From a virus (lineage: Duplodnaviria > Heunggongvirae > Uroviricota > Caudoviricetes): a stretch of 25,976 bases of DNA. The stretch is taken from IMG/VR virus record IMGVR_UViG_2529293141_000017, positions 1 to 25,976 of that record; one strand, given 5' to 3'. The notes beneath the pieces were generated by a model. That model saw only the letters and a program-made list of their open reading frames with translations, was not told the DNA's origin and searched no databases. Position 1 is the first letter of the stretch; each line of letters opens with the position of its first letter. Positions 4,365 through 25,976 of this stretch are shown piece after piece. A program made the translations under genes and the position numbers.

Positions 4365-5228
4365 CTAATCATCTATTTCGGTTGCCTTCTTATTCAGCAA
4401 ACGAGAAGCGCGCCAGTAAACCAGCAACATCAGGCCCATTACGATAGTCAGCGTAATGCTGGTAGCTGCACCAAACGGCCAGTCACGAATATTAAGGAAC
4501 TGGACCTTGATGACGTTACCGATCAGCAGGTTTTTCGCACCGCCCATCAGGTCGGATACATAGAACAGGCCCATCGCTGGCAGCATCACCAGCAGACATC
4601 CGGCAATAATTCCCGGCATCGTCAGTGGAATAATGATACGGATAAAAGTCTGTAACTTGCTGGCACCGAGATCGCGCGCCGCCTCAAGCAACGGCTTATC
4701 CAGTTTTTCGATACTGGAGTACAGCGGCATCACCATAAACGGCAGCAGAATGTAAACCAGACCGATAATCACCGCACTGGGCGTGAACATGATACGGATT
4801 GGTGTGTCGATAACGCCCAGCCAGAGCAAAAACTCGTTGAGATAGCCTTTGGTGCTGAGGAAAATTTTCAGCCCGTAGATACGAATTAATGAGTTGGTCC
4901 AGAACGGAACAATCAGCAGAAACAGCAGCAGCGGACGCACCTTGTGTGGCAACTTCGCCAGAAACCAGGCAAACGGGTAGCCCAGCACCAGGCAGGCGAG
5001 GGTGGCGATCAGCGCCATATTCAGCGAGTGCAATAGCACTTCAAAATAGAGCGGATCGAGCAGACGCGTGTAGTTATCCAGCGTAAAGACCATTTTGACA
5101 AAACTGGCGTCGTCGCGGGTCAAAAAGCTGGTGCCAATGATCATCAGGTTGGGCAGAAAGACAAACAACACAAGCCAACCGACAATAGTGACAATCACTA
5201 CATTCTGGAACTTACTTGTGTTCTTCAT
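4365..5228 (-). CDS. potB: Spermidine/putrescine ABC transporter permease PotB
   Basis: 287-aa multi-TM permease with the EAARDLGA signature. Its start overlaps the potA stop, as in the potABCD operon. Confidence 0.93.
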
Positions 5229-6348
5229 CAGCCAGTACGACCTCCCAGCTTTCTACCCAATTAATGGCCATTTTTTGGTCGAGAGAGTGGTCAAAGTCAG
5301 GATCGTCTTCATTGAAGAATTCGCTGACCATCACCATCTTGCCATTTTCCAGTTCAACAACCGACTCCAGCGTCATGCCTTTGTAGTTACGCTCGCGAAC
5401 GTAACCAATCAGCCCTTCAGCGTGGTTGTCGTCGTTAATCTCTTCAACACGTAAGTCTTCCGGGCGCAGCAGAACATGCAGTTTTTGCCCCGGTTCAACG
5501 GCGAAGTTAACGTAGATATTACATTCGCGGCCTTCAACGTTGGCGCGTACGCGCTGCTCGTCTAGACGTTCGATGACAGTGGCGTTAAACATATTGATTT
5601 CGCCAATGAAGCCGGCAACAAACAGGTTTTTCGGCTCTTCGTAGATTTCACGCGGCGTGCCGTCTTGCTCAATGCGACCATCGCGCATCACCACAATCCT
5701 GTCTGACATGGTGAGTGCTTCTTCCTGGTCGTGAGTCACAAAGACGAATGTAATGCCAAGCTTACGCTGTAACGCTTTCAGCTCGTTCTGCATTTGCTTA
5801 CGCAGTTTGTAATCCAGCGCTGAGAGCGACTCATCCAGCAACAACAGACGAGGCTTGTTAACCACCGCGCGAGCAATGGCGACGCGTTGCTGTTGACCAC
5901 CAGAGAGCTGATGCGGTTTGCGTTGAGCGAAGGTTTCCAACTGCACCATCCGCAGGGCTTCCATCACGCGGGGCGTAATTTCAGCAGCGGGGGTTTTTTG
6001 CATGCGCAACCCAAAGGCCACATTTTCGAACACGGTCATGTGGGGGAAAAGTGCGTAGCTTTGGAAAACAGTGTTCACATAGCGGTTTTCCGCCGGAACG
6101 TGGGTGATGTCCTCGTTATCCAGCATGATGCGTCCGGAATCAACAGTTTCCAGACCTGCAATCAGGCGAAGAACGGTTGTTTTACCGCAGCCAGAAGGGC
6201 CAAGCAGCGTGAGGAACTCGCCATTGTTGATAGTCAGATCCAGCTGGGGAATGACCTCTTTACCATCAAAGCATTTGCGAATTCCCGCCAATTGCACCAG
6301 CGGTGAAAGCGAACTCGGTTGTTTATTCAATTTTTTACTCTGTCCCAT
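5212..6348 (-). CDS. potA: Spermidine/putrescine ABC transporter ATP-binding protein PotA
   Basis: 378 aa with Walker [13 protein letters not shown] signature LSGGQQQR and Walker B LLLDE. Confidence 0.96.
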
Positions 6349-8994: not shown

Positions 8995-9195
8995 GTTAAG
9001 CATCCACAGGCTGGTATCTGCAACCGATTATAACGGATGCTTAACGTAATGCGTGAAGTATGGACATATTTTATCAATTAGTGTTTTTTGCCGTTTCATA
9101 ATGTTTCAGGTTGTGCATTATGTTTTTGATTATAAACAGATTTGTGATTTTTCTTGTTCCAGCTTGTTTCACGTTGTAGCCCTTTGTGCAACGAT

Positions 9196-9221
9196 CGGTG
9201 TAGTTAATGGTGTAGTTAATT
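9196..9221. repeat. Candidate attL core (CGGTGTAGTTAATGGTGTAGTTAATT)
   Basis: Direct repeat of 24410-24435; lies immediately 5' of the int start. Confidence 0.55.
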
Positions 9222-10472: not shown

Positions 10473-10846
10473 TTTTTTTCGTGTTTTTTCAGTATGCGCA
10501 TACTGGATAAGTGCACAGATACAACGTGAAACAATGTGCAATAACGTGACACAATCACGAACAAGAGGCCAAAAAGAATACAGATTTATAAGTTACTGAT
10601 TTTTAATGCTCAGCTGGTTTTTTATACATTAGTGAATTACGCGTTAAAGCGTGCGAAAAAAGGCATAAAACAAGATTTTATGCCTTTGTATTAACATGAA
10701 TTTAAATGATTTTATCCTGATTATTCCTCTTTCTGTAAACCATGCGACACCAACATTTGCCAACTCTGAATCATCCTGACACAATCAGACACATCCCAAC
10801 GCAATAGAACACGAAATAACTCTTTAAGAAACGAAAGGGGGCAATA

Positions 10847-11035: not shown

Positions 11036-11215
11036 AAAGACTGGCGGCACACAGCCACCACCAATCCATTATTGACCGATACCGGGATCTCGGTATCGGG
11101 AATAAACGCCATAATACTGAGGTATAACCATGATGAAATATACGCCCGTACAGGGGCGGGGATTCGTTCGCCCTGGTGAATCTGAAAAGCCATGCTATAG
11201 GGTATTTTCAGGCAT

Positions 11216-11243
11216 AAAAAAAGCGGTCCCGATATGGAACCGC
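11216..11243 (-). terminator. Rho-independent terminator for the minus-strand repressor cassette
   Basis: On the minus strand: GGCGGTTCC atatc GGGACCGC followed by T7. Confidence 0.45.
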
Positions 11244-11311
11244 CTTTCTGAACAATTAACCCGCTGCGCCGTATGTGTCAACAATCATAAGCCCGAACAT
11301 GATAACCGTGA

Positions 11312-11515
11312 TCAGGCTGGTGGGCAATTACCTTGCTTGTTGGGGCCGTATTGTGCTGCCATTTTCATCCGTTCAGAACGTGAATATTTTTTTAGAAACT
11401 CATCAAGGACAAAAGCGCATGGAGCGAATCTTTCTGATTCATGCTCGAGCGCCATATTTTCGTGCTCTCTGTTCGTTTTTTGCGATGGTGTATTGGTTGA
11501 TTCTTTATTGGTCAT
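11312..11515 (-). CDS. Hypothetical small protein (67 aa), second gene of repressor cassette A
   Basis: Paralogue of 12028-12255: shared MTN start and a conserved C-terminal F-x-L-D/E-x-F-x-K-Y-x-R motif. It is followed by a terminator. Confidence 0.45.
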   Translation of the reverse strand: MTNKESTNTPSQKTNREHENMALEHESERFAPCAFVLDEFLKKYSRSERMKMAAQYGPNKQGNCPPA

Positions 11516-11572
11516 TGTGTGTACCTGTAAAGCAATGCGCCGTAGTACCTCACGCCACGGCGCTGATAGTAA

Positions 11573-11752
11573 TTATTCTGATTCTTTGGCCTTGCGGCGC
11601 TGGCGGCGTTTGATCTCGCCTTTTGCTGCCGTAACTAGAAATCCGGCGGTACTTTCGCCAGGTTCTTTAAGTTGCTCAATATCGGTCATTACCTCATGCG
11701 GGATTCTGACCGTTGTCATTTGTGATTTTGCGTTCTTTGCACCTGTTGCCAT
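11573..11752 (-). CDS. Ribbon-helix-helix DNA-binding protein (59 aa), candidate island repressor, copy A
   Basis: Own translation MATGAKNAKSQMTTVRIPHEVMTDIEQLKEPGESTAGFLVTAAKGEIKRRQRRKAKESE, with a beta-strand / helix / helix pattern. AGGAGA Shine-Dalgarno 7 nt upstream. Divergent from a plus-strand promoter and operators. Confidence 0.55.
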   Translation of the reverse strand: MATGAKNAKSQMTTVRIPHEVMTDIEQLKEPGESTAGFLVTAAKGEIKRRQRRKAKESE

Positions 11753-11771
11753 TTCTGGTTCTCCTGATAAT

Positions 11772-11864
11772 CGGTGTATTTCAGTATACGCAAAAAAAAG
11801 ATAAAAAAAGTCTTGCGGTGTATTTCACCTGAATGTAGATTTAAAAATGAAGGTGAAATACACC
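11772..11864. promoter_or_regulatory. Operator/promoter region A: GGTGTATTTCACC in three copies, two forming a perfect 13-bp inverted pair
   Basis: 11817-11829 and 11852-11864 are exact reverse complements; a third direct copy lies at 11772-11783. The region sits between divergent genes. Confidence 0.45.
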
Positions 11865-11938
11865 CAAAACAACAACGCCCCGCAGTGATGGGAACACATA
11901 CGGGGCGTCTAACCAAACCATTAATTGAGGTAACGATT

Positions 11939-12010
11939 ATGGCTATAAAAGAGCATAGCTTACTCTTTATACACACACAAACGCCCCGGAAACGGAATAA
12001 TCCGTTTCAT
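11939..12010 (+). pseudogene. Truncated 5' remnant of an Icd-like gene (paralogue of 12685-12879)
   Basis: MAIKEHSLLFIHTQT... shares the M-x-x-x-H-x-x-x-L-x-HTQT start with 12685, then loses similarity where cassette B begins. Confidence 0.35.
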
Positions 12011-12027
12011 AGTTCGGTTTTGTGCAC

Positions 12028-12255
12028 TCATCCTGGCGGTCGGTTTTTGCCGGATTTAAGCCGCCGTGGGTATTTATCGACAAAATCTTCAAGGGCAAAT
12101 TTTTCTGGTGGCACTAAGCGCGGCGCTGGTGGTGGTATTTTTGTTCTGGTTAGTTCTTCCTCAACTCTGGCGCAGGCTTCTGACTGCCTTTGCCGGATGA
12201 TTTCATCATCTTGCGTTTGCGTGTCTTGTATTGGTGATAGTGTGTTGTTGGTCAT
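12028..12255 (-). CDS. Hypothetical small protein (75 aa), second gene of repressor cassette B
   Basis: Paralogue of 11312-11515, same position in the cassette. Confidence 0.5.
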   Translation of the reverse strand: MTNNTLSPIQDTQTQDDEIIRQRQSEACARVEEELTRTKIPPPAPRLVPPEKFALEDFVDKYPRRLKSGKNRPPG

Positions 12256-12312
12256 GATACTGCCCTGTAAAGCAATGCGCCGTAGTACCTCACACCACGG
12301 CGCTGATAGTGA

Positions 12313-12492
12313 TTATTCTGATTCTTTGGCCTTGCGACGCTGGCGGTATTCAACTTCCCGCTTTAATGCAGCTGTAACAAACTGCCCTGTACTTTCGCCG
12401 GGCATTTTTACCGCCTCAACATTGTTCATAACTTCATGTGGAACCCTTGCCGCAACTGTTTGTGATTTTGCGTTTACTGCTTTTGTCGCCAT
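12313..12492 (-). CDS. Ribbon-helix-helix DNA-binding protein (59 aa), candidate island repressor, copy B
   Basis: MATKAVNAKSQTVAARVPHEVMNNVEAVKMPGESTGQFVTAALKREV.... GAGGGG Shine-Dalgarno upstream. Divergent from the replication operon. Confidence 0.6.
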   Translation of the reverse strand: MATKAVNAKSQTVAARVPHEVMNNVEAVKMPGESTGQFVTAALKREVEYRQRRKAKESE

Positions 12493-12542
12493 GTTGAGCA
12501 CCCCTCATAAAAAACAAATGCAGTATGCAGGAAAAAAAACAA

Positions 12543-12594
12543 GTGTTCAACACTTGACGTGTTTAACACCTCGATTTAAATTGGTGTTCAACAC
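12543..12594. promoter_or_regulatory. Operator/promoter region B: three GTGTT(C/T)AACAC palindromes overlapping a TTGACG-N17-TAAATT promoter
   Basis: Palindromes at 12543, 12559 and 12584 bracket the -35 and -10 of the plus-strand promoter feeding 12685 onward. Confidence 0.5.
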
Positions 12595-12684
12595 CTTATT
12601 TAGGCAAGGTGTAGAAACGACGAAACCCCGCACTGTAGGAGCAGTAACGGGGCTTCTAACCAACAACGTAAACGAGGAGCCGTT

Positions 12685-12879
12685 ATGGTTGCCGTAAATC
12701 ATATACCACACCTTGTACACACACAAACGGCCTTTGTGTGGCGTTTTCTGGCACTGAGTGCCGGAGAATCTCAAATCATCCACGTAACCGCCTGGACGGA
12801 ACGCGAAGCGCGTAACCTTTGCCCGTCCGGTTGTGTTGCTGTATTTGCCGCCCGTATTCGCCAGGGGGTAGGCTTATGA
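12685..12879 (+). CDS. Small protein, possibly Icd-like (host cell division inhibitor family); first gene of the early operon
   Basis: 64 aa with a GAGGAG Shine-Dalgarno. The motif FVWRFLALS...TEREAR...FAARI resembles Icd-like proteins of P4-type elements, from memory only. Confidence 0.5.
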   Translation: MVAVNHIPHLVHTQTAFVWRFLALSAGESQIIHVTAWTEREARNLCPSGCVAVFAARIRQGVGL

Positions 12880-13778: not shown

Positions 13779-14078
13779 ATGAAACTTAAATATTCTGGCT
13801 TAACTGCCAGTGGCAACACTCACCCTAAATTTACGCGCGGTGATATTTACCGCGACCAGTACGGCGGTACGGTAATGATTAAGGGCGTGGCGGGACGGTG
13901 CGTAACTTACCGCCGTGAAGGTTACGAATATGATTGCGTGATGCCTGTTTATCAGTTCCGGCGTGATTTTTCTCTGGTACAGACCGCGCCGCATAACGTG
14001 CCCACCAGCAGGGAGAAAGCACGCGCCAATATTCAGAAGATGAAAAACATGATTAACGGATTCAGGGGCAAGAAATGA
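13779..14078 (+). CDS. Hypothetical protein (99 aa), translationally coupled to the helicase gene
   Basis: Stop overlaps the helicase ATG (ATGA). Confidence 0.55.
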   Translation: MKLKYSGLTASGNTHPKFTRGDIYRDQYGGTVMIKGVAGRCVTYRREGYEYDCVMPVYQFRRDFSLVQTAPHNVPTSREKARANIQKMKNMINGFRGKK

Positions 14079-15472
14079 AAAGCGCACCGAACTTAAAAAA
14101 ACAGCCTTACGACAAGATGACCGAAGTCATCATTTTTGCGGGTAGTGATGCGTGGGCACATGCGAAACAGTGGCAGGAACAGGACGGGCGACTGGCTGGC
14201 GATAATGTGCCTCCCATTGTGCTGGCTGATGATCAACTGGATGAACTGGCAGACCTGAGAATCATCGACGAGGGGCGCTATTGTGTCCGGCTGTACAAGG
14301 CAGGCCACATCAGGCCATCAAATATTAATGCCATTGCGCACAAGCTGGCGGCGGCGGGCGTAACTGATGCGAATTATTACCCCGAAGGGATACACAGCCA
14401 GAAGCGGGAGAACTGGCGCGAATATCTGGAACGGGAGCGGGGGAAAAAGCCAGGGGAAGAACACCACCAGCGAAAAACCACGCTACCGATGAGCGTTGGA
14501 TCTGCCGGATACGACACGCAATTAGATTACGTGGTAAAGGGGATTATTCCGGCATCGTCGCTTTGCAGCATATACGGGGCGAGCGGTTCCTATAAATCAT
14601 TCCTTGCGGGTTCGTGGGCGTGTCACGTTTCCACGGGCCGCCAGTGGGGAGGCCGCAGGGTGGCGCATGGCGCTGTTCTCTATGTGGTTGGTGAAGGCGG
14701 TATCGGCGTTCCGCGTCGTGTAAAAGCCTGGGAGGTTGTGCACGGTGAGCAGGTGAAAAATCTGTATCTGGTAAACCGTCCCATCTTTCCGGCGGTCCCG
14801 CTTGATGTTGATGAAATGGTTATCGCTGCCCGTCAGGTGGAGCGGGAAACGGGTAAACCTGTACGCATGATTATTCTGGATACGCTGGCGCGTTGCTTTG
14901 GTGGGAATGATGAAAATGATTCCCGTGATATGGGGGCGTTTATCCGTGGTTGTGACGAACTGAAACGACGCACAGGGGCCACGGTGCTGGTGGTTCACCA
15001 TTCCGGCAAGGATGAGACGAAAGGCGCGCGCGGTTCCAGTGCATTTCGTGCATCACTGGATGCTGAATACCGGATACGCAGGGAGGACGCAGGAAGCGAA
15101 GCGCTGGTTATCTCATGCACCAAAATGAAGGACGCGGAGGAACTCAAAGAAGCCGCATATGACTTACGCGTGGTGGAGCTGTTTACCGACGCTGACGGGG
15201 AGTTAATCACGTCGCTGGTGGTGGTGGATAAGCCGCGCCCTCCCGTTGAACTGGAGCGCATCGAGGAGGCAGGCAACAAGACGGAAAACCATACCGCACT
15301 ATGGGGGTGCATCCGTTCACGCACACAGAACGGCGACAAGTGCACGATCCCGCTGTTACGTGATGACATGAAACGGCTTGGGTATGACGTGAAAAATATG
15401 CGGCGATGGTTAGCCAAACTGGAAAAAGACGCCGTGATTTACATTGATGGTGATGATGTAGGACCACTGTAA
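14075..15472 (+). CDS. Replicative ATPase/helicase (RecA-fold, RepA/AAA_25-like) with an N-terminal domain of unknown role
   Basis: Walker A GASGSYKS, Walker B-like ILDTLARCFGG, and VVHHSGKD...GARGSSA motifs. Confidence 0.8.
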   Translation: MKSAPNLKKQPYDKMTEVIIFAGSDAWAHAKQWQEQDGRLAGDNVPPIVLADDQLDELADLRIIDEGRYCVRLYKAGHIRPSNINAIAHKLAAAGVTDANYYPEGIHSQKRENWREYLERERGKKPGEEHHQRKTTLPMSVGSAGYDTQLDYVVKGIIPASSLCSIYGASGSYKSFLAGSWACHVSTGRQWGGRRVAHGAVLYVVGEGGIGVPRRVKAWEVVHGEQVKNLYLVNRPIFPAVPLDVDEMVIAARQVERETGKPVRMIILDTLARCFGGNDENDSRDMGAFIRGCDELKRRTGATVLVVHHSGKDETKGARGSSAFRASLDAEYRIRREDAGSEALVISCTKMKDAEELKEAAYDLRVVELFTDADGELITSLVVVDKPRPPVELERIEEAGNKTENHTALWGCIRSRTQNGDKCTIPLLRDDMKRLGYDVKNMRRWLAKLEKDAVIYIDGDDVGPL

Positions 15473-15672
15473 AAAGTGAGTAGCAAAAGTGAGTAATGAT
15501 GAGGTTTTTACAAAATATTAACACGATTACTCACTTTCTCACCTGTATACATGCTCAAAAGTGAGGAGTAAAAAAATCATTATGAAACATACACATAAAG
15601 CATCAAAAAATATCAAGTGAGACGAAGCGAGACGCTTTAAAAAGTGAGGTGTAAAAGTGAGCATGAGTGAGG
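15473..15672. repeat. Iteron array (AAAGTGAG, at least 7 direct and 1-2 inverted copies) with an AT-rich spacer: candidate island replication origin
   Basis: Copies at 15473, 15486, 15530 (inverted), 15558, 15615, 15641 and 15654, immediately 3' of the helicase gene. Confidence 0.55.
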
Positions 15673-15926
15673 AGATAACCAAAATGCGCAGAGACAGAAC
15701 AGGGCCGAAATATAAAGCGTTAGACATGACAGAGCACGCCTTAAAGGTGGCAATCAGGGTAATAGACCGCCACGCGGGGGAAGGATACGCGAAAGCACAT
15801 CCCGAACTGATAAGCGCATTCATGACCACGACGGCGGCAAATTTTGCCACGCTGACAGAGCGGGAGATTGCCGAAGCGGAACAGGTAACAACCATCAACG
15901 TTAAAACCGGAGAGGTGGAATCATGA
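15663..15926 (+). CDS. Hypothetical protein (87 aa)
   Basis: ORF begins inside the last iterons; its stop overlaps the next ATG. Confidence 0.4.
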   Translation: MSEEITKMRRDRTGPKYKALDMTEHALKVAIRVIDRHAGEGYAKAHPELISAFMTTTAANFATLTEREIAEAEQVTTINVKTGEVES

Positions 15927-16907: not shown

Positions 16908-17173
16908 GAATATCAGAACCACACCATACAGCCGGAGCAATCCGGCTTTTTGTTATTTTTTGTAAATTATTTGTTCGTGGTTGTTCCACGTTGTTCACTG
17001 AGCGGATCGGCATATTTTACCCGAACTGAATCATGATTATTCTCGCCCGTGGTGCCAGGACGCTGGGGCCACTTTCCCGCCTGTTAATGTGCTCGCCAAT
17101 ATTCATTACCAGGCGGGAAAACGATCGGTGCGATTGCTGATTTCCTTATGAAAAACGGTTGAGTGTTTGCCGC

Positions 17174-21431: not shown

Positions 21432-21552
21432 TGCTGTATGACGGGGTGGGGGGGCGTTTTCAGGACAAACCCGACCCCGCCGGGCACCGAACGCCTCCTC
21501 AAATTTTTATGCACGGGAATTTTTTGAAAAATAATCTGGCGAAAAAATAAGC

Positions 21553-23567: not shown

Positions 23568-23849
23568 ATGACAGAAGCCGAAATACTGCGATTAATCCGC
23601 CGCGTCTCTGGAATCAGCCAGCAGGCTGACGAACAGACCACGCAGCCGGACAGCGTGACAGCCGAAAATTATGCGCGTGTTGTTGCTGAGGTGATGCGCC
23701 GTGATGGTATCCAGCTTAATGATGCGGATATGCGCGACATACGGATCCGCGTTCTGGAAATGCTGGCCTACAATCGCCGCGTTGAACTGTATCGGGAGAA
23801 GGAGAAAATCACGTACCACTGGAAGAAGCCGGAGCGGTTACGGCGGTAA
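23568..23849 (+). CDS. Hypothetical protein (93 aa), last gene of the packaging operon
   Basis: GAGG Shine-Dalgarno; followed by a terminator at 24052. Confidence 0.5.
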   Translation: MTEAEILRLIRRVSGISQQADEQTTQPDSVTAENYARVVAEVMRRDGIQLNDADMRDIRIRVLEMLAYNRRVELYREKEKITYHWKKPERLRR

Positions 23850-23963
23850 CTTGTTGATTAAAAGGCGGCTCAATTCTGAGCTGGGTAGCTGACGGCGGTA
23901 ACTGTTTTATATTCCCGATAGCGCAAAAATGCGCGGTCGGGCAGAATGACCACCACCTCAATC

Positions 23964-23998
23964 GTGACGGAGAGTGACAACCAGTGACACACCGTGAC
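23964..23998. repeat. Four GTGAC motifs phased at exactly 10 bp: candidate protein-binding array
   Basis: GTGAC at 23964, 23974, 23984 and 23994. Confidence 0.5.
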
Positions 23999-24051
23999 AA
24001 AAAGACGGTTTAACCGTTCATTAAAAATCGACGTGATTTTGTGCTATCAGG

Positions 24052-24075
24052 ATGACGTGGCCAACGTCATTTTTT
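24052..24075 (+). terminator. Rho-independent terminator
   Basis: ATGACGT ggcca ACGTCAT followed by a T-run. Confidence 0.5.
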
Positions 24076-24107
24076 AGCGAAAAATTCTGATTAAGGTCAC
24101 TGGCTGA

Positions 24108-24233
24108 ATGGTCATAATGACCACGCAGACCATCGAGGCAACCATAGCGATCATCGTTACGGTTGGAGCTTTTCCGCCATTGGTGGAAAAGGTGCACATC
24201 TGGATCATCATTACGGTGATCAAGGGTATGTAA
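24108..24233 (+). CDS. Candidate 41-aa hydrophobic peptide
   Basis: Own translation MVIMTTQTIEATIAIIVTVGAFPPLVEKVHIWIIITVIKGM. Weak Shine-Dalgarno; not in the provided ORF track because it is under 60 aa. Confidence 0.2.
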   Translation: MVIMTTQTIEATIAIIVTVGAFPPLVEKVHIWIIITVIKGM

Positions 24234-24409
24234 AACCCACCAGCCTGATTAAATGTTAACCGGAAAAAAAATCCGGTAGCCCCGTTATGGGGATCCCCAT
24301 ATCGACATTAACGCCCCTCATGAATTGGTGCGCTTCCCCCTGGAAAGATTACCCGCCTGTATATTTCTTGTGTCTATTTGTTCCACGTTGTTTCATACAG
24401 TGCACCGAA

Positions 24410-24435
24410 CGGTGTAGTTAATGGTGTAGTCAATT
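24410..24435. repeat. Candidate attR core (CGGTGTAGTTAATGGTGTAGTCAATT)
   Basis: 25/26 identical to 9196-9221, in direct orientation. Confidence 0.55.
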
Positions 24436-24515
24436 TGCGATTTTTGGCACTTTTTCAATGATAATTGTTTAATTAAATCAATGACTTGACCTGGTGTGGT
24501 GATAAAAGGACATAT

Positions 24516-25976
24516 TTATTCATCTTTCGGCGCAGAATGCTGGCGACCAAAAATCACCTCCATCCGCGCACCGCCCAGCATGCTCTCTCCGGCGACGATT
24601 TTACCCTCATATTGCTCGGTGATTTCGCGGGCTACCGCCAGCCCTACACCTTGCCCAGGGCGTAAAGTATCAACCCGTTGACCACGGTCGAAAATGACCT
24701 CTCGCTTGCTTAATGGAATACCGGGGCCATCATCCTCGACCACAATATAGAGATGCTCGTCGGTTTGCCTTGCAGAAATTTCGACAAACTCGAGGCAATA
24801 TTTACAGGCATTATCCAGCACGTTGCCCATCACCTCGACAAAATCGTTCTGCTCACCGACAAAGCTGATCTCTGGCGAAATATCGAGAGAGATATTGACC
24901 CCTTTGCGTTGATACACTTTGTTCAGCGCTGAGGTGAGATTGTCCAGCAGTGGGGCGACCGGATGCAGCTCGCGGCTGAGCAATGTCCCGCCGCGCATAC
25001 TGGCACGATGCAGGTAGTAGCCAATTTGCTGTGAAATGCGGCTGATTTGCTCCAGCATTACCGGCTCAGCATCACTGACGCTCATCTTTTCACTACGCAG
25101 AGAACGCAGCGTACTTTGCAGCACCGCCAGTGGCGTTTTCAGACTATGGGTCAGGTCGGTGAGCGTCGTACGGTATTTGTCGTAACGTTCGCGTTCACTT
25201 TTTAACAATCGGTTCAGGTTTCGTACCAGACTGGTCAGTTCTCGCGTTGTGGCTGGATTGAGCAATTCGCGGTTATGTTCTTCCAGTTCGCGGACTTCTT
25301 TTGCCAGGGCTTCGATGGGGCGTAAACTCCACCAGGCGGCGACCCACAGCAGCGGGATCACTAACAGCAGATTGGCTGAGAGCACATAGATAAACCAGCT
25401 CCAGACCATATAGGAACTTTTTAGCTCCACCGGAATGGTATCCACCACCACAATGGTTAATTTTGGCATCCGCGATGTTGCCGGGTAGACGTTTACTGCC
25501 ACCGAGTGGGTCATCTCCGCGTCGTCATCATCTTCCCGCACTTCCTGCAACTGTTGCTGTATCGAATGATCTCCACTCAGCAAGAGGCTGGTATCGTTAA
25601 CATCCGCTTCAATTTCATGAAAACCATTCGATTTCAGCCAGTCAGGCTGGATCATCTTCATCAGCCAGGGCACGTCACGTTGCGCCCATAAAAGCTGCCC
25701 GTTCTCATCATAAATTAGCGTCATGGTGGGGCTTTGCTTGTCGATATTTTCGGGTAACTCGACATGCAACTTATTGTTTTCCCACTTCGCAAGGGTATAG
25801 AACAGATTGCTCTCGCCACGTAACAGCCGAAACGTAGTTTTATCGAAACTGACGCTATAACCGATCAGCGCGACCATTCCGTAGGCAAGCGAAAGCACCA
25901 GTACTACCGCTGCCGTTGCCAACAGAAAACGTACCCGCAGCGAGAGCGGGAAAAAAAGACGCAGTAATTTTTTCAT
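24516..25976 (-). CDS. phoQ: Sensor histidine kinase PhoQ
   Basis: 486 aa starting [25 protein letters not shown]..., with a periplasmic sensor region, HAMP and a HisKA/ATPase core; the start lies at the window edge. Confidence 0.96.

Follow-up and report, generated by a model that had tools for sequence, protein, structure and literature searches.

A mosaic right end with an optional array of phased GTGAC repeats in a capsid-forming phage satellite of Escherichia coli

Background

EcCIEDL933 is the prototype of the phage-inducible chromosomal islands that form capsids (cf-PICIs). It is a 15.4-kb element that is induced, replicates and is transferred at high frequency (10.1101/2022.09.08.507074). 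Its cos, att and distal regions are not covered in that study, and the non-coding ends of Escherichia coli PICIs have hardly been described so far. One such end is the subject of this text. It belongs to an island in a 25,976-nt stretch of viral DNA, here called the window (IMG/VR record IMGVR_UViG_2529293141_000017, positions 1 to 25,976). The end begins just after the last packaging gene, at position 23850, and takes in a segment that a first-pass annotation, made by a model from the letters alone, had singled out (23850-24409). By comparison with about 60 related islands, it is a recombination mosaic. Within it lies an optional cassette with four GTGAC repeats in exact 10-bp phase, which might serve as an iteron-like platform for a factor supplied in trans.

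The annotation of the island was read from a near-identical E. coli record (L001). By the same comparison, the window consists of pepT-roxA, the island and phoQ. From left to right the island carries int, alpA, small genes, a replicase, SSB, the major capsid protein and an HK97 protease, followed by portal, head closure, connector, HNH, TerS (P27 family), TerL and orf93. Pfam matches within it are AlpA, Terminase_4, integrase and AAA_25. Comparison with the empty K-12 site gives the island a length of about 15.4 kb and places it between roxA and phoQ, at the phoQ stop codon. A cf-PICI is 10-18 kb long and lacks tail and lysis genes, and the annotation, the Pfam matches and the ends 15.4 kb apart all agree with this. 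The gene set is that described for EcCIEDL933.

The Sakai prophage Sp7 (CP-933C) is a second point of comparison. It measures 15,461 bp and occupies the same phoQ-end site. It shares with the window island the gene order from int to TerL-orf93, the att core and an arm block described below, and its TerS-TerL-orf93 region is 96% identical. On these grounds the window island is a cf-PICI, an allele of O157 Sakai Sp7/EcCIEDL933. Because site, size and gene set match, the segment can be placed: it is the non-coding right end of a phage satellite of known type.

The two islands differ in the stretch from orf93 to the attP arm. Sp7 has about seven boundary units there and no GTGAC array, HP1 hairpin or terminator cassette, whereas the window island has two boundary units and then the cassette. 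The first-pass annotation had described structured DNA at the distal end of an integrated element, brought next to attP and int in the excised circle. This description holds: the segment is structured and non-coding, and the positions of the two att cores and of int (Table 1) bring it beside attP and int on excision.

A recombination mosaic after the last packaging gene

Four parts make up the right end: boundary repeats, an optional cassette of about 170 bp, an indel-prone stretch and the attP arm. The cassette contains the GTGAC array, a minus-strand hairpin (HP1) and the terminator of the late operon, so that it has the form of back-to-back terminators. To survey relatives, 80 viral contigs were retrieved through orf93 alone and combined with fetched E. 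coli loci, which gave 56 different sequences for the region that follows orf93; 26 of them have the array and 30 lack it. Array, HP1 and terminator mostly occur together. The exceptions are L004-type loci, which have neither HP1 nor the terminator, and L194-L197, which have no terminator.

Islands that carry the array are found at several chromosomal sites. One of them, at clpS (L003), combines a protease-capsid fusion with a RepA helicase and has orf93 followed by the array. Another, at yejO (L004), has a DUF1441 gene in the rpp position, downstream of a cos-like site; it lacks the GGTGTAGTTAAT arm block, and its five array units start 8 nt after the orf93 stop. A third, at tqsA (L005), encodes a capsid protein, a decoration protein and TerS, and has an inverted lambda-type cos just upstream of orf93. 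The replicases of these islands are RepA helicases or primases, and their packaging modules are of the Rpp/lambda-cos, capsid-fusion or TerS type. Among the protein clusters of the islands none is strictly associated with the array. The best associated cluster is a replicase allele, found 13 times with the array and 6 times without it (p = 0.003).

The cassette can also be missing where integrase, replicase and packaging types agree with those of the window island. Orf93 alleles that are identical are found both with the array and without it. Core, arm block and packaging genes are shared by Sp7, which has seven boundary units in place of the cassette, and a second PICI inserted at phoQ, in O157 strain 9234, is likewise without it. 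Among complete E. coli genomes the cassette occurs in about 250 of 5,426, never on plasmids, and orf93 in about 1,300. Since the cassette accompanies differing integrases, replicases and packaging types and is absent from Sp7, it is not a site for Int, AlpA, TerS or Rep that the life cycle needs. If Sp7 is taken as equivalent to EcCIEDL933, which is transfer-proficient (10.1101/2022.09.08.507074), it follows that the array is not required for excision, replication or packaging.

The boundary units are the repeated material of the mosaic. The direct repeat in the window joins 23827-23858 and 23879-23910. In related islands the number of units ranges from none, with the array 8 nt after the stop, to about seven. 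The units may be recombination linkers or structured RNA. With them, the stretch after the last packaging gene can be described as a recombination hotspot built from repeated boundary units. A unit is about 50 bp long; it reads ...GGCG(C)GGTAAC YNNYTGATATTYYCG and then has a hairpin whose sequence varies. Such units are seen at 23827-23960 of the window, at 4797-5250 of another locus (L205) and at many IMG/VR loci. The hairpin stems differ in sequence from unit to unit, with pairing kept.

Exchange is also seen further inside the island. L001 is the closest full-length relative, and its packaging module and right end are near-identical to those of the window. Its replicase is different: a 584-aa primase-family protein (within 6406-8456 of L001) stands against a 465-aa RepA-like helicase (within 13779-15472 of the window). 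A replicase that differs while packaging module and right end are near-identical implies module exchange inside the island.

The segment as a whole has no match in 50,697 phage records, and no Rfam family matches it even at E values up to 5.

The GTGAC array

The plus strand of the array has GTGAC starting at 23964, 23974, 23984 and 23994, four motifs exactly 10 bp apart as the first-pass annotation had it. As a single word, GTGAC is not enriched (48 observed, 46 expected). The three-unit pattern GTGACN5GTGACN5GTGAC occurs only at the array within the 26 kb; shuffled sequences average 0.02 matches, and none of 100 reaches the observed two. The units have nothing but GTGAC(A) in common, and their spacers (GGAGA, AACCA, ACACC and AAAAA) are unrelated. 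Related islands have four or five units, and one variant lacks exactly one 10-bp unit, which keeps the phase.

Variation among relatives also spares the motif. In variants found without reference to the motif, all four variable sites fall in spacers (P ~0.03). When variants from the pattern search are added the figure is 11 of 11, for a set that is biased towards intact cores. This is moderate evidence that the array consists of selected protein-binding sites on one face of the helix.

The array could instead have no present function, being the relic of a captured origin fragment or a product of slippage in a recombination hotspot. The cassette is optional (about 250 genomes, against some 1,300 with orf93), the array has been lost in two loci (L163 and L175), and the region is a patchwork. 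However, duplicates in decay would not be expected to keep identical cores between fully different spacers. Variants differ from one another outside the cores, and there is no homology to an O-like gene beyond the repeats. A functionless array is judged unlikely.

The position of the array is constant. In every case it comes after the orf93 stop and before the first intrinsic terminator, in sense orientation, in what is the 3' untranslated region (UTR) of the late operon. It is downstream of orf93 in 35 of 35 loci, sometimes by only 8 nt. A promoter overlapping the array is not indicated, as neither inspection by eye nor a scanner gave a convincing -10 element after any GTGACA taken as a -35.

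This position could be explained if an island-encoded protein, either orf93 or an unrecognised regulator, used the array as operator or landing site and affected termination or expression where the operon ends. The product of orf93 is a helical, basic protein with the invariant C-terminus WKKPERLRR, and the array follows its gene in every locus. Yet identical orf93 alleles occur without the array, and Sp7 keeps orf93 and lacks it. The adjacency can also be explained by linkage at a recombination hotspot. No DNA-binding fold is detected in orf93: it has no Pfam family, two AlphaFold models reach a predicted local distance difference test score of 68-69, and Foldseek against the PDB gives nothing below E = 0.5. 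With neither a family, a confident model nor a structural match, orf93 was rejected as a recognisable DNA-binding protein. An island-encoded partner is rather unlikely.

Other properties of orf93 describe a restricted family. It matches phrog_1561, a family of unknown function, and has 37 representatives among 1.8 billion proteins. Relatives outside E. coli were found only in Shigella among 185,579 species genomes. Within this range, orf93 is the last gene in four different PICI types. Gene 1792 of EcCIEDL933, whose mutation lowers transfer, was considered as a counterpart and could not be mapped to orf93.

A possible landing pad for a phage initiator

The preferred reading joins the mosaic right end to an accessory, iteron-like platform for a trans-acting factor. 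It is held tentatively, with somewhat less than even confidence. The array would be a set of sites on one helix face, read by a DNA-binding protein that is dispensable for excision, replication and packaging of the island. It would be accessory cargo in the 3' variable region of the satellite, and would offer a trans-supplied factor an iteron-like landing pad. For that factor, the O-type initiator of a co-resident lambdoid phage with GTGACA iterons at 10-11 bp spacing would be the best candidate. The array of the amplified island might then titrate or exploit this phage initiator. The step to an O-type initiator is drawn by analogy; it is tentative and the weakest of the proposal. The regions that flank the packaging module of cf-PICIs are variable and are expected to carry immune systems (10.1101/2025.02.11.637232).

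The analogy comes from a scan of 2.9 million IMG/VR viral contigs for four units of GTGACN5. The scan gave at least 119 loci in 74 sequence classes. For 52 of the 74 classes the array is enclosed by an open reading frame (ORF) of 200 aa or more that runs on the opposite strand; no class has it in such a frame on the same strand. With 27 contigs, the largest class has the array in the N-terminal part of the ORF. This part is about 85% identical in DNA to E. coli phage genes annotated as 'DNA replication protein O', and a lambda P-like gene comes after the ORF. Other classes show the same N-terminal motif and a weak Phage_rep_org_N match. Because most classes sit in such ORFs, the phased GTGAC arrays of phages are for the most part origin iterons within initiator genes. 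The window array resembles O-type iterons in having at least four direct repeats in helical phase. It differs from them in being intergenic, in an island without an O-like gene, and in having its AT-rich flank on the opposite side. In L003 and L005, units 3-4 of the array (AGTGACACGCCGTGACA) are identical over 17 nt to the iterons of the E. coli phage class.

An origin of the array as a remnant of an O gene was considered and rejected. Similarity in tblastn is confined to the repeats, with no homology beyond them.

Several points weigh against the landing-pad proposal. With about 240 comparisons made, a 17-nt identity could arise by chance. The control pentamer GTCAG forms 106 phased arrays in viral contigs, close to the 119 or more of GTGAC, and another control pentamer gives 45; an enrichment of GTGAC arrays over these controls is not convincing. 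GTGAC arrays inside phage initiator genes have their AT-rich stretch on the other side, so the window array is unlikely to function as an origin. No GTGAC array is present in HK106, which is known as a helper of the prototype island; this phage was accordingly set aside as a source of a GTGAC-binding initiator. L163 and L175 keep HP1 and the terminator next to a degenerate remnant of the array, and from this loss it follows that selection on the array is not strong. The dispensability of the array depends on equating Sakai Sp7 with EcCIEDL933, as we infer. The partner protein is a candidate only.

The constant sense orientation between the orf93 stop and the terminator is a further such point, as it would suit an RNA. 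The cassette could act as a small RNA derived from the 3' UTR, with GUGAC repeats and a terminator hairpin. Such an RNA may pair as antisense with the GUCAC repeats in the mRNAs of phage O-like genes, or may serve as a protein sponge. Phage initiator genes carry complementary repeats on their coding strand, and the complementarity to one E. coli phage class is perfect over 17 nt. The exact 10-bp period nevertheless points to helical phasing of DNA. Orientation is fixed by linkage anyway, and the segment has no Rfam match. Action as an RNA is improbable. A more specific claim is that the cassette is a protein-free decoy, anti-phage or phage-exploiting, which on induction and amplification of the satellite soaks up the O-type initiator of lambdoid phages with GTGACA-repeat origins, or pairs as 3'-UTR RNA with the initiator mRNA. 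It would be non-coding cargo in the defence hotspot of the satellite. This is distinctly unlikely.

The outcome matters for how such ends are read. If the array binds a phage initiator, as the landing-pad proposal would have it, the cassette is a non-coding form of satellite-phage interference, and searches of defence hotspots for cargo would have to include non-coding cassettes. If it does not, the cassette is a terminator module of the usual kind at an operon end, with an orphan binding site.

Two further kinds of phased array were seen in viral contigs. A separate GTGAC class (CAAAAAAACGGTGACATTCAGTGACAAACGG...) lies between the terminase large-subunit and portal genes of a high-GC phage contig (L101, 6325-6360). 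The same class, with 4 to 9 units, is found in three other IMG/VR contigs (L008, L042 and L075), in the first two of these near a contig end. Arrays of GTCAG with a 10-bp period (L215-L320, IMG/VR) lie in a long same-strand ORF in 23 of 63 classes and on the opposite strand in none. This is the strand relation of GTCAC in initiator genes, and these arrays may mark related gene-embedded origins.

Probable sites for integration and excision

The first-pass annotation had suggested that the GTGAC array is bound by integrase, excisionase or TerS. Likely recombination arm sites are indeed present in the segment. They are found in another place, a 75-nt block that extends past 24409, where that annotation had ended the segment (Table 1). 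A second copy of the block stands at the other end of the island. Each copy has two tandem GGTGTAGTTAAT-type repeats and a 10-bp-phased TTGTTY array. In the excised circle the copies lie about 75-85 bp from the core, one on each side, and the integrase has an Arm-DNA-bind_3 domain. Repeats on both sides of the core, together with an arm-binding domain in the integrase, are what an attP arm should show. The right-hand block is therefore described here as the likely location of the integrase arm sites, and holds the best candidates in the segment. Hairpin HP2, the G4/C4 palindrome and the arm block are common to most islands, whether the cassette is present or not. The likely attP arm sites of the Sp7/EcCIEDL933 family are now placed, apart from an optional cassette that might easily be taken for them.

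Xis- and Cox-type winged-helix proteins bind head-to-tail sites at a spacing of about 10 bp. The GTGAC array has this spacing and lies on the attP-proximal side of the island, and a unit in the int-alpA region (CGTGACACAA) resembles its units. It could on this basis consist of arm-type sites for integrase or of excisionase (AlpA/Xis) sites of attP. Sites of the arm type serve only the cognate integrase or excisionase and lie some 50-250 bp from the crossover core, whereas about 510 bp separate the array from it. The array occurs in islands at other sites, one of which (L004) has no GGTGTAGTTAAT arm block, and two islands at the phoQ site, Sp7 and the second PICI there, are without it. The block that flanks the core on both sides is the better candidate, and the invariant part of the int-alpA units is ACAA, not GTGAC. 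A role of the GTGAC array in integration or excision is very improbable.

A related motif near int had been offered as a link to the array. An exact GTGACACAATCA is present at 10546; the second copy is CTGACACAATCA and starts at 10776, not 10770. The number of such matches is not above chance, since 38 of 100 shuffles give at least three. The link is superficial because the invariant part of the int-alpA array is ACAA/TTGT.

TTGTTY units like those of the arm block were seen by eye on the minus strand between int and alpA, at about 10519-10568. In minus-strand orientation this stretch has five ACAA-N6 units at 10-bp spacing, of which GTGACACAATCA is one, and it is a candidate AlpA site. In the corresponding region of EcCICFT073, AlpA is reported to activate its own promoter (PMC6092414). 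A further array of this type lies just upstream of the capsid operon. The stretch 16941-17040 has a terminator-like hairpin AGCCGGAGCAATCCGGCTTTTT and, after it, three TTGTTC units with an exact 10-bp spacing (16971-16996), an arrangement that resembles an activator-dependent late promoter. In L003-L005 there is no TTGTTC array upstream of the capsid genes.

Candidate packaging and replication sites

The array might also be a packaging signal, a cosB or pac site bound by TerS or Rpp. It comes after TerL-orf93, the cosB of EcCICFT073 cos1 contains GTGAAGGTGACACC (PMC6739421), and one class of GTGAC arrays in viral contigs lies between TerL and the portal gene. Against this, the window has no lambda cosN within 3 mismatches, and a lambda-type cos was accordingly rejected. 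In HK97-type genomes cos lies upstream of terS. The TerS of HK97 binds 15 bp downstream of cos (10.1101/2023.07.17.549218). A TerS-binding site would lie beside cos and upstream of terS and would be needed for packaging; the array is downstream of TerL-orf93. A G-rich, cos-like region is found instead at about 21440-21500. The cos sites of classical PICIs are elsewhere again, upstream of rpp or orf93. Finally, islands with the array are of three packaging types, and Sp7 has no array. That it is a packaging signal is scarcely credible, and the suggested TerS site falls with it.

The G-rich region at 21440-21500 (GACGGGGTGGGGGGGCG...CCCGACCCCGCCGGGC) lies between the HNH gene and terS, in the place expected for an HK97-type cos. 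In two TerS-type PICIs an inverted lambda-type cos, similar to cos2 of EcCICFT073, lies directly upstream of orf93 (L005, 8620-8680; L204, 1940-2000).

In the replication origins of PICIs, an AT-rich region between two sets of iterons comes directly 3' of the pri/rep gene (PMC6092414). The window has AAAAGTGAG iterons in two or three sets at 15467-15683, directly after the RepA-like helicase gene (14075-15472; AAA_25 domain), and these fit the published organisation. The GTGAC array lies 8.5 kb from them and is found with two replicase types; it is not the PICI origin.

Table 1. Features of the right end of the island and its att sites (window coordinates)
Feature	Position	Strand	Remarks
attL core GGACATATTT	9062-9071		Same sequence as attR core
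Matching arm block	9147-9221	+	Directly upstream of int (start 9222)
orf93	23568-23849	+	Last gene of late (packaging) operon, 93 aa
Two boundary units	23847-23960	+	Each copies orf93 3' end (…ACGGCGGTAAC + TNNTTGAT…), then short hairpin
GTGAC(A) array	23964-23998	+	Four units, exact 10-bp period; then A-tract to 24003
HP1 hairpin ACGGTTTAACCGT	24005-24017	-	On minus strand followed by CTTTTTG; travels with array
Intrinsic terminator	24050-24078	+	Closes late operon; stem ATGACGT/ACGTCAT at 24052-24058 / 24064-24070, T6 to 24075
41-codon ORF	24108-24233	+	ATG to TAA, in indel-prone stretch; probably fortuitous
Palindrome GGTCATAATGACC	24110-24122	.	Most widely kept element of variable region; in all islands examined
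HP2 hairpin AACCGGAAAAAAAATCCGGT	24258-24277		Outer part of attP arm
G4/C4 palindrome	24283-24304		Includes TGGGGATCCCCA; outer part of attP arm
attP arm block	24361-24435	+	75-nt direct repeat of 9147-9221, 77% identical
Phased TTGTKY array	24368-24393		Within attP arm block
Two tandem GGTGTAGTTAAT/GGTGTAGTCAAT repeats	24411-24434		Candidate integrase arm-type sites
attR core GGACATATTT	24508-24517		Overlaps phoQ stop codon (24516-24518); identified from empty K-12 site and attL

Terminator, palindromes and the 41-codon ORF

The late operon is closed by a predicted intrinsic terminator, with a stem of 7-10 bp and a run of six T. The terminator was correctly recognised at 24052-24075, and its predicted fold is strong: a 136-nt stretch of the plus strand gives -36.6 kcal/mol (z = -2.4). 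It is conserved in related islands, where changes are confined to the loop. A simple terminator scanner passed over 24052-24075 and flagged the minus-strand hairpin at 24005-24017, which is HP1. This hairpin resembles a minus-strand terminator because CTTTTTG follows it on that strand.

The palindrome GGTCATAATGACC has the counterparts GGTGATAATCACC or AATCATTATGATT elsewhere. Both halves change together in these variants, so symmetry is kept. In L003 two copies of the GGTCATAATGACC type (about 5991-6003 and 6160-6172) bracket the GTGAC cassette like direct repeats. The perfect palindrome TGGGGATCCCCA, previously put at 24289-24300, is present one base to the left, at 24288-24299, and sits within a longer inverted repeat (24283-24304).

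An ORF of 41 codons had been proposed as a hydrophobic, toxin-like gene. The frame is as placed, and the toxin reading finds no support. L003 and L005 have 19 bp in place of 24126-24236. Among the long variants, the C-terminal half of the ORF is altered by a frameshift of 1 nt in L175 and by larger indels in L136, L163 and L168. For a Shine-Dalgarno sequence there is just one weak candidate, an AAGG 11 nt upstream, and the product has no Pfam or PHROG match. An internal hairpin at 24164-24196 shows the reverse behaviour: a stem position that is G-T in the window is C-G in O157. Because palindrome and hairpin are conserved and the frame is not, the ORF is judged probably fortuitous and not a gene. 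A toxin of a type I toxin-antitoxin system was rejected in particular, as the frame is broken or replaced in relatives and neither a protein family nor Rfam gives a match. A hydrophobic ORF on the minus strand (MIAMVASMVCVVIMTIQPVTLIRIFR) was rejected as well; its ends differ between relatives and it is no better conserved.

Other observations in the window

Between alpA and the replication genes, two neighbouring ORFs of 224 and 307 aa (11130-12697) share a 125-nt repeat (11505-11629 and 12245-12369, 82% identical). Neither has a Pfam or PADLOC match. They occupy the position in which PICIs carry accessory or defence cargo.

In the chromosomal flank, 970-1128 on the plus strand matches the sok antisense RNA family RF01794 with 62.9 bits (gathering score 59); no other Rfam match is seen in the window. 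This indicates a locus of the hok/sok toxin-antitoxin type upstream of pepT.

Comparison with known systems

In the attP arms of lambda, short helically phased direct repeats lie near the core: the Int sites P1, P2 and P'1-3, and the Xis filament on X1-X1.5-X2. The block at 24361-24435 fits this pattern, with the core flanked on both sides. The GTGAC array is unlike the lambda arm sites. It lies about 510 bp from the core, is not linked to the integrase type and is probably dispensable.

Iterons within phage O genes resemble the array in form. Temperate phages, the E. coli phages Evi and Tritos among them, have four to six direct repeats of GTGAC(A) with a spacing of 10-11 bp and variable spacers. 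The difference lies in context: the PICI array is intergenic, and the island encodes no such initiator.

A phenotype described for lambda, the 'inhibition phenotype', shows what an iteron cluster can do outside its phage. Iterons ITN3-4, carried on a plasmid together with oop RNA, exclude phages with lambda-type replication (PMC3349717). That system and the cassette both combine an iteron cluster with a short, terminator-bounded region on a high-copy replicon, which might disturb a phage in need of the cognate initiator. The likeness is one of analogy only; the geometry differs, and the oop RNA and the exclusion are those of the lambda system.

A parallel among the PICIs themselves is EcCICFT073, with its cos1 and cos2 sites and an Rpp-specific cosB (PMC6739421). 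Its sites have lambda cosQ and cosN, whereas the window has none and the array is not beside a cosN. These sites, like the array, are non-coding recognition sites near the end of an E. coli PICI, and classical PICIs with cos sites of the EcCICFT073 type also carry orf93 and then the GTGAC array.

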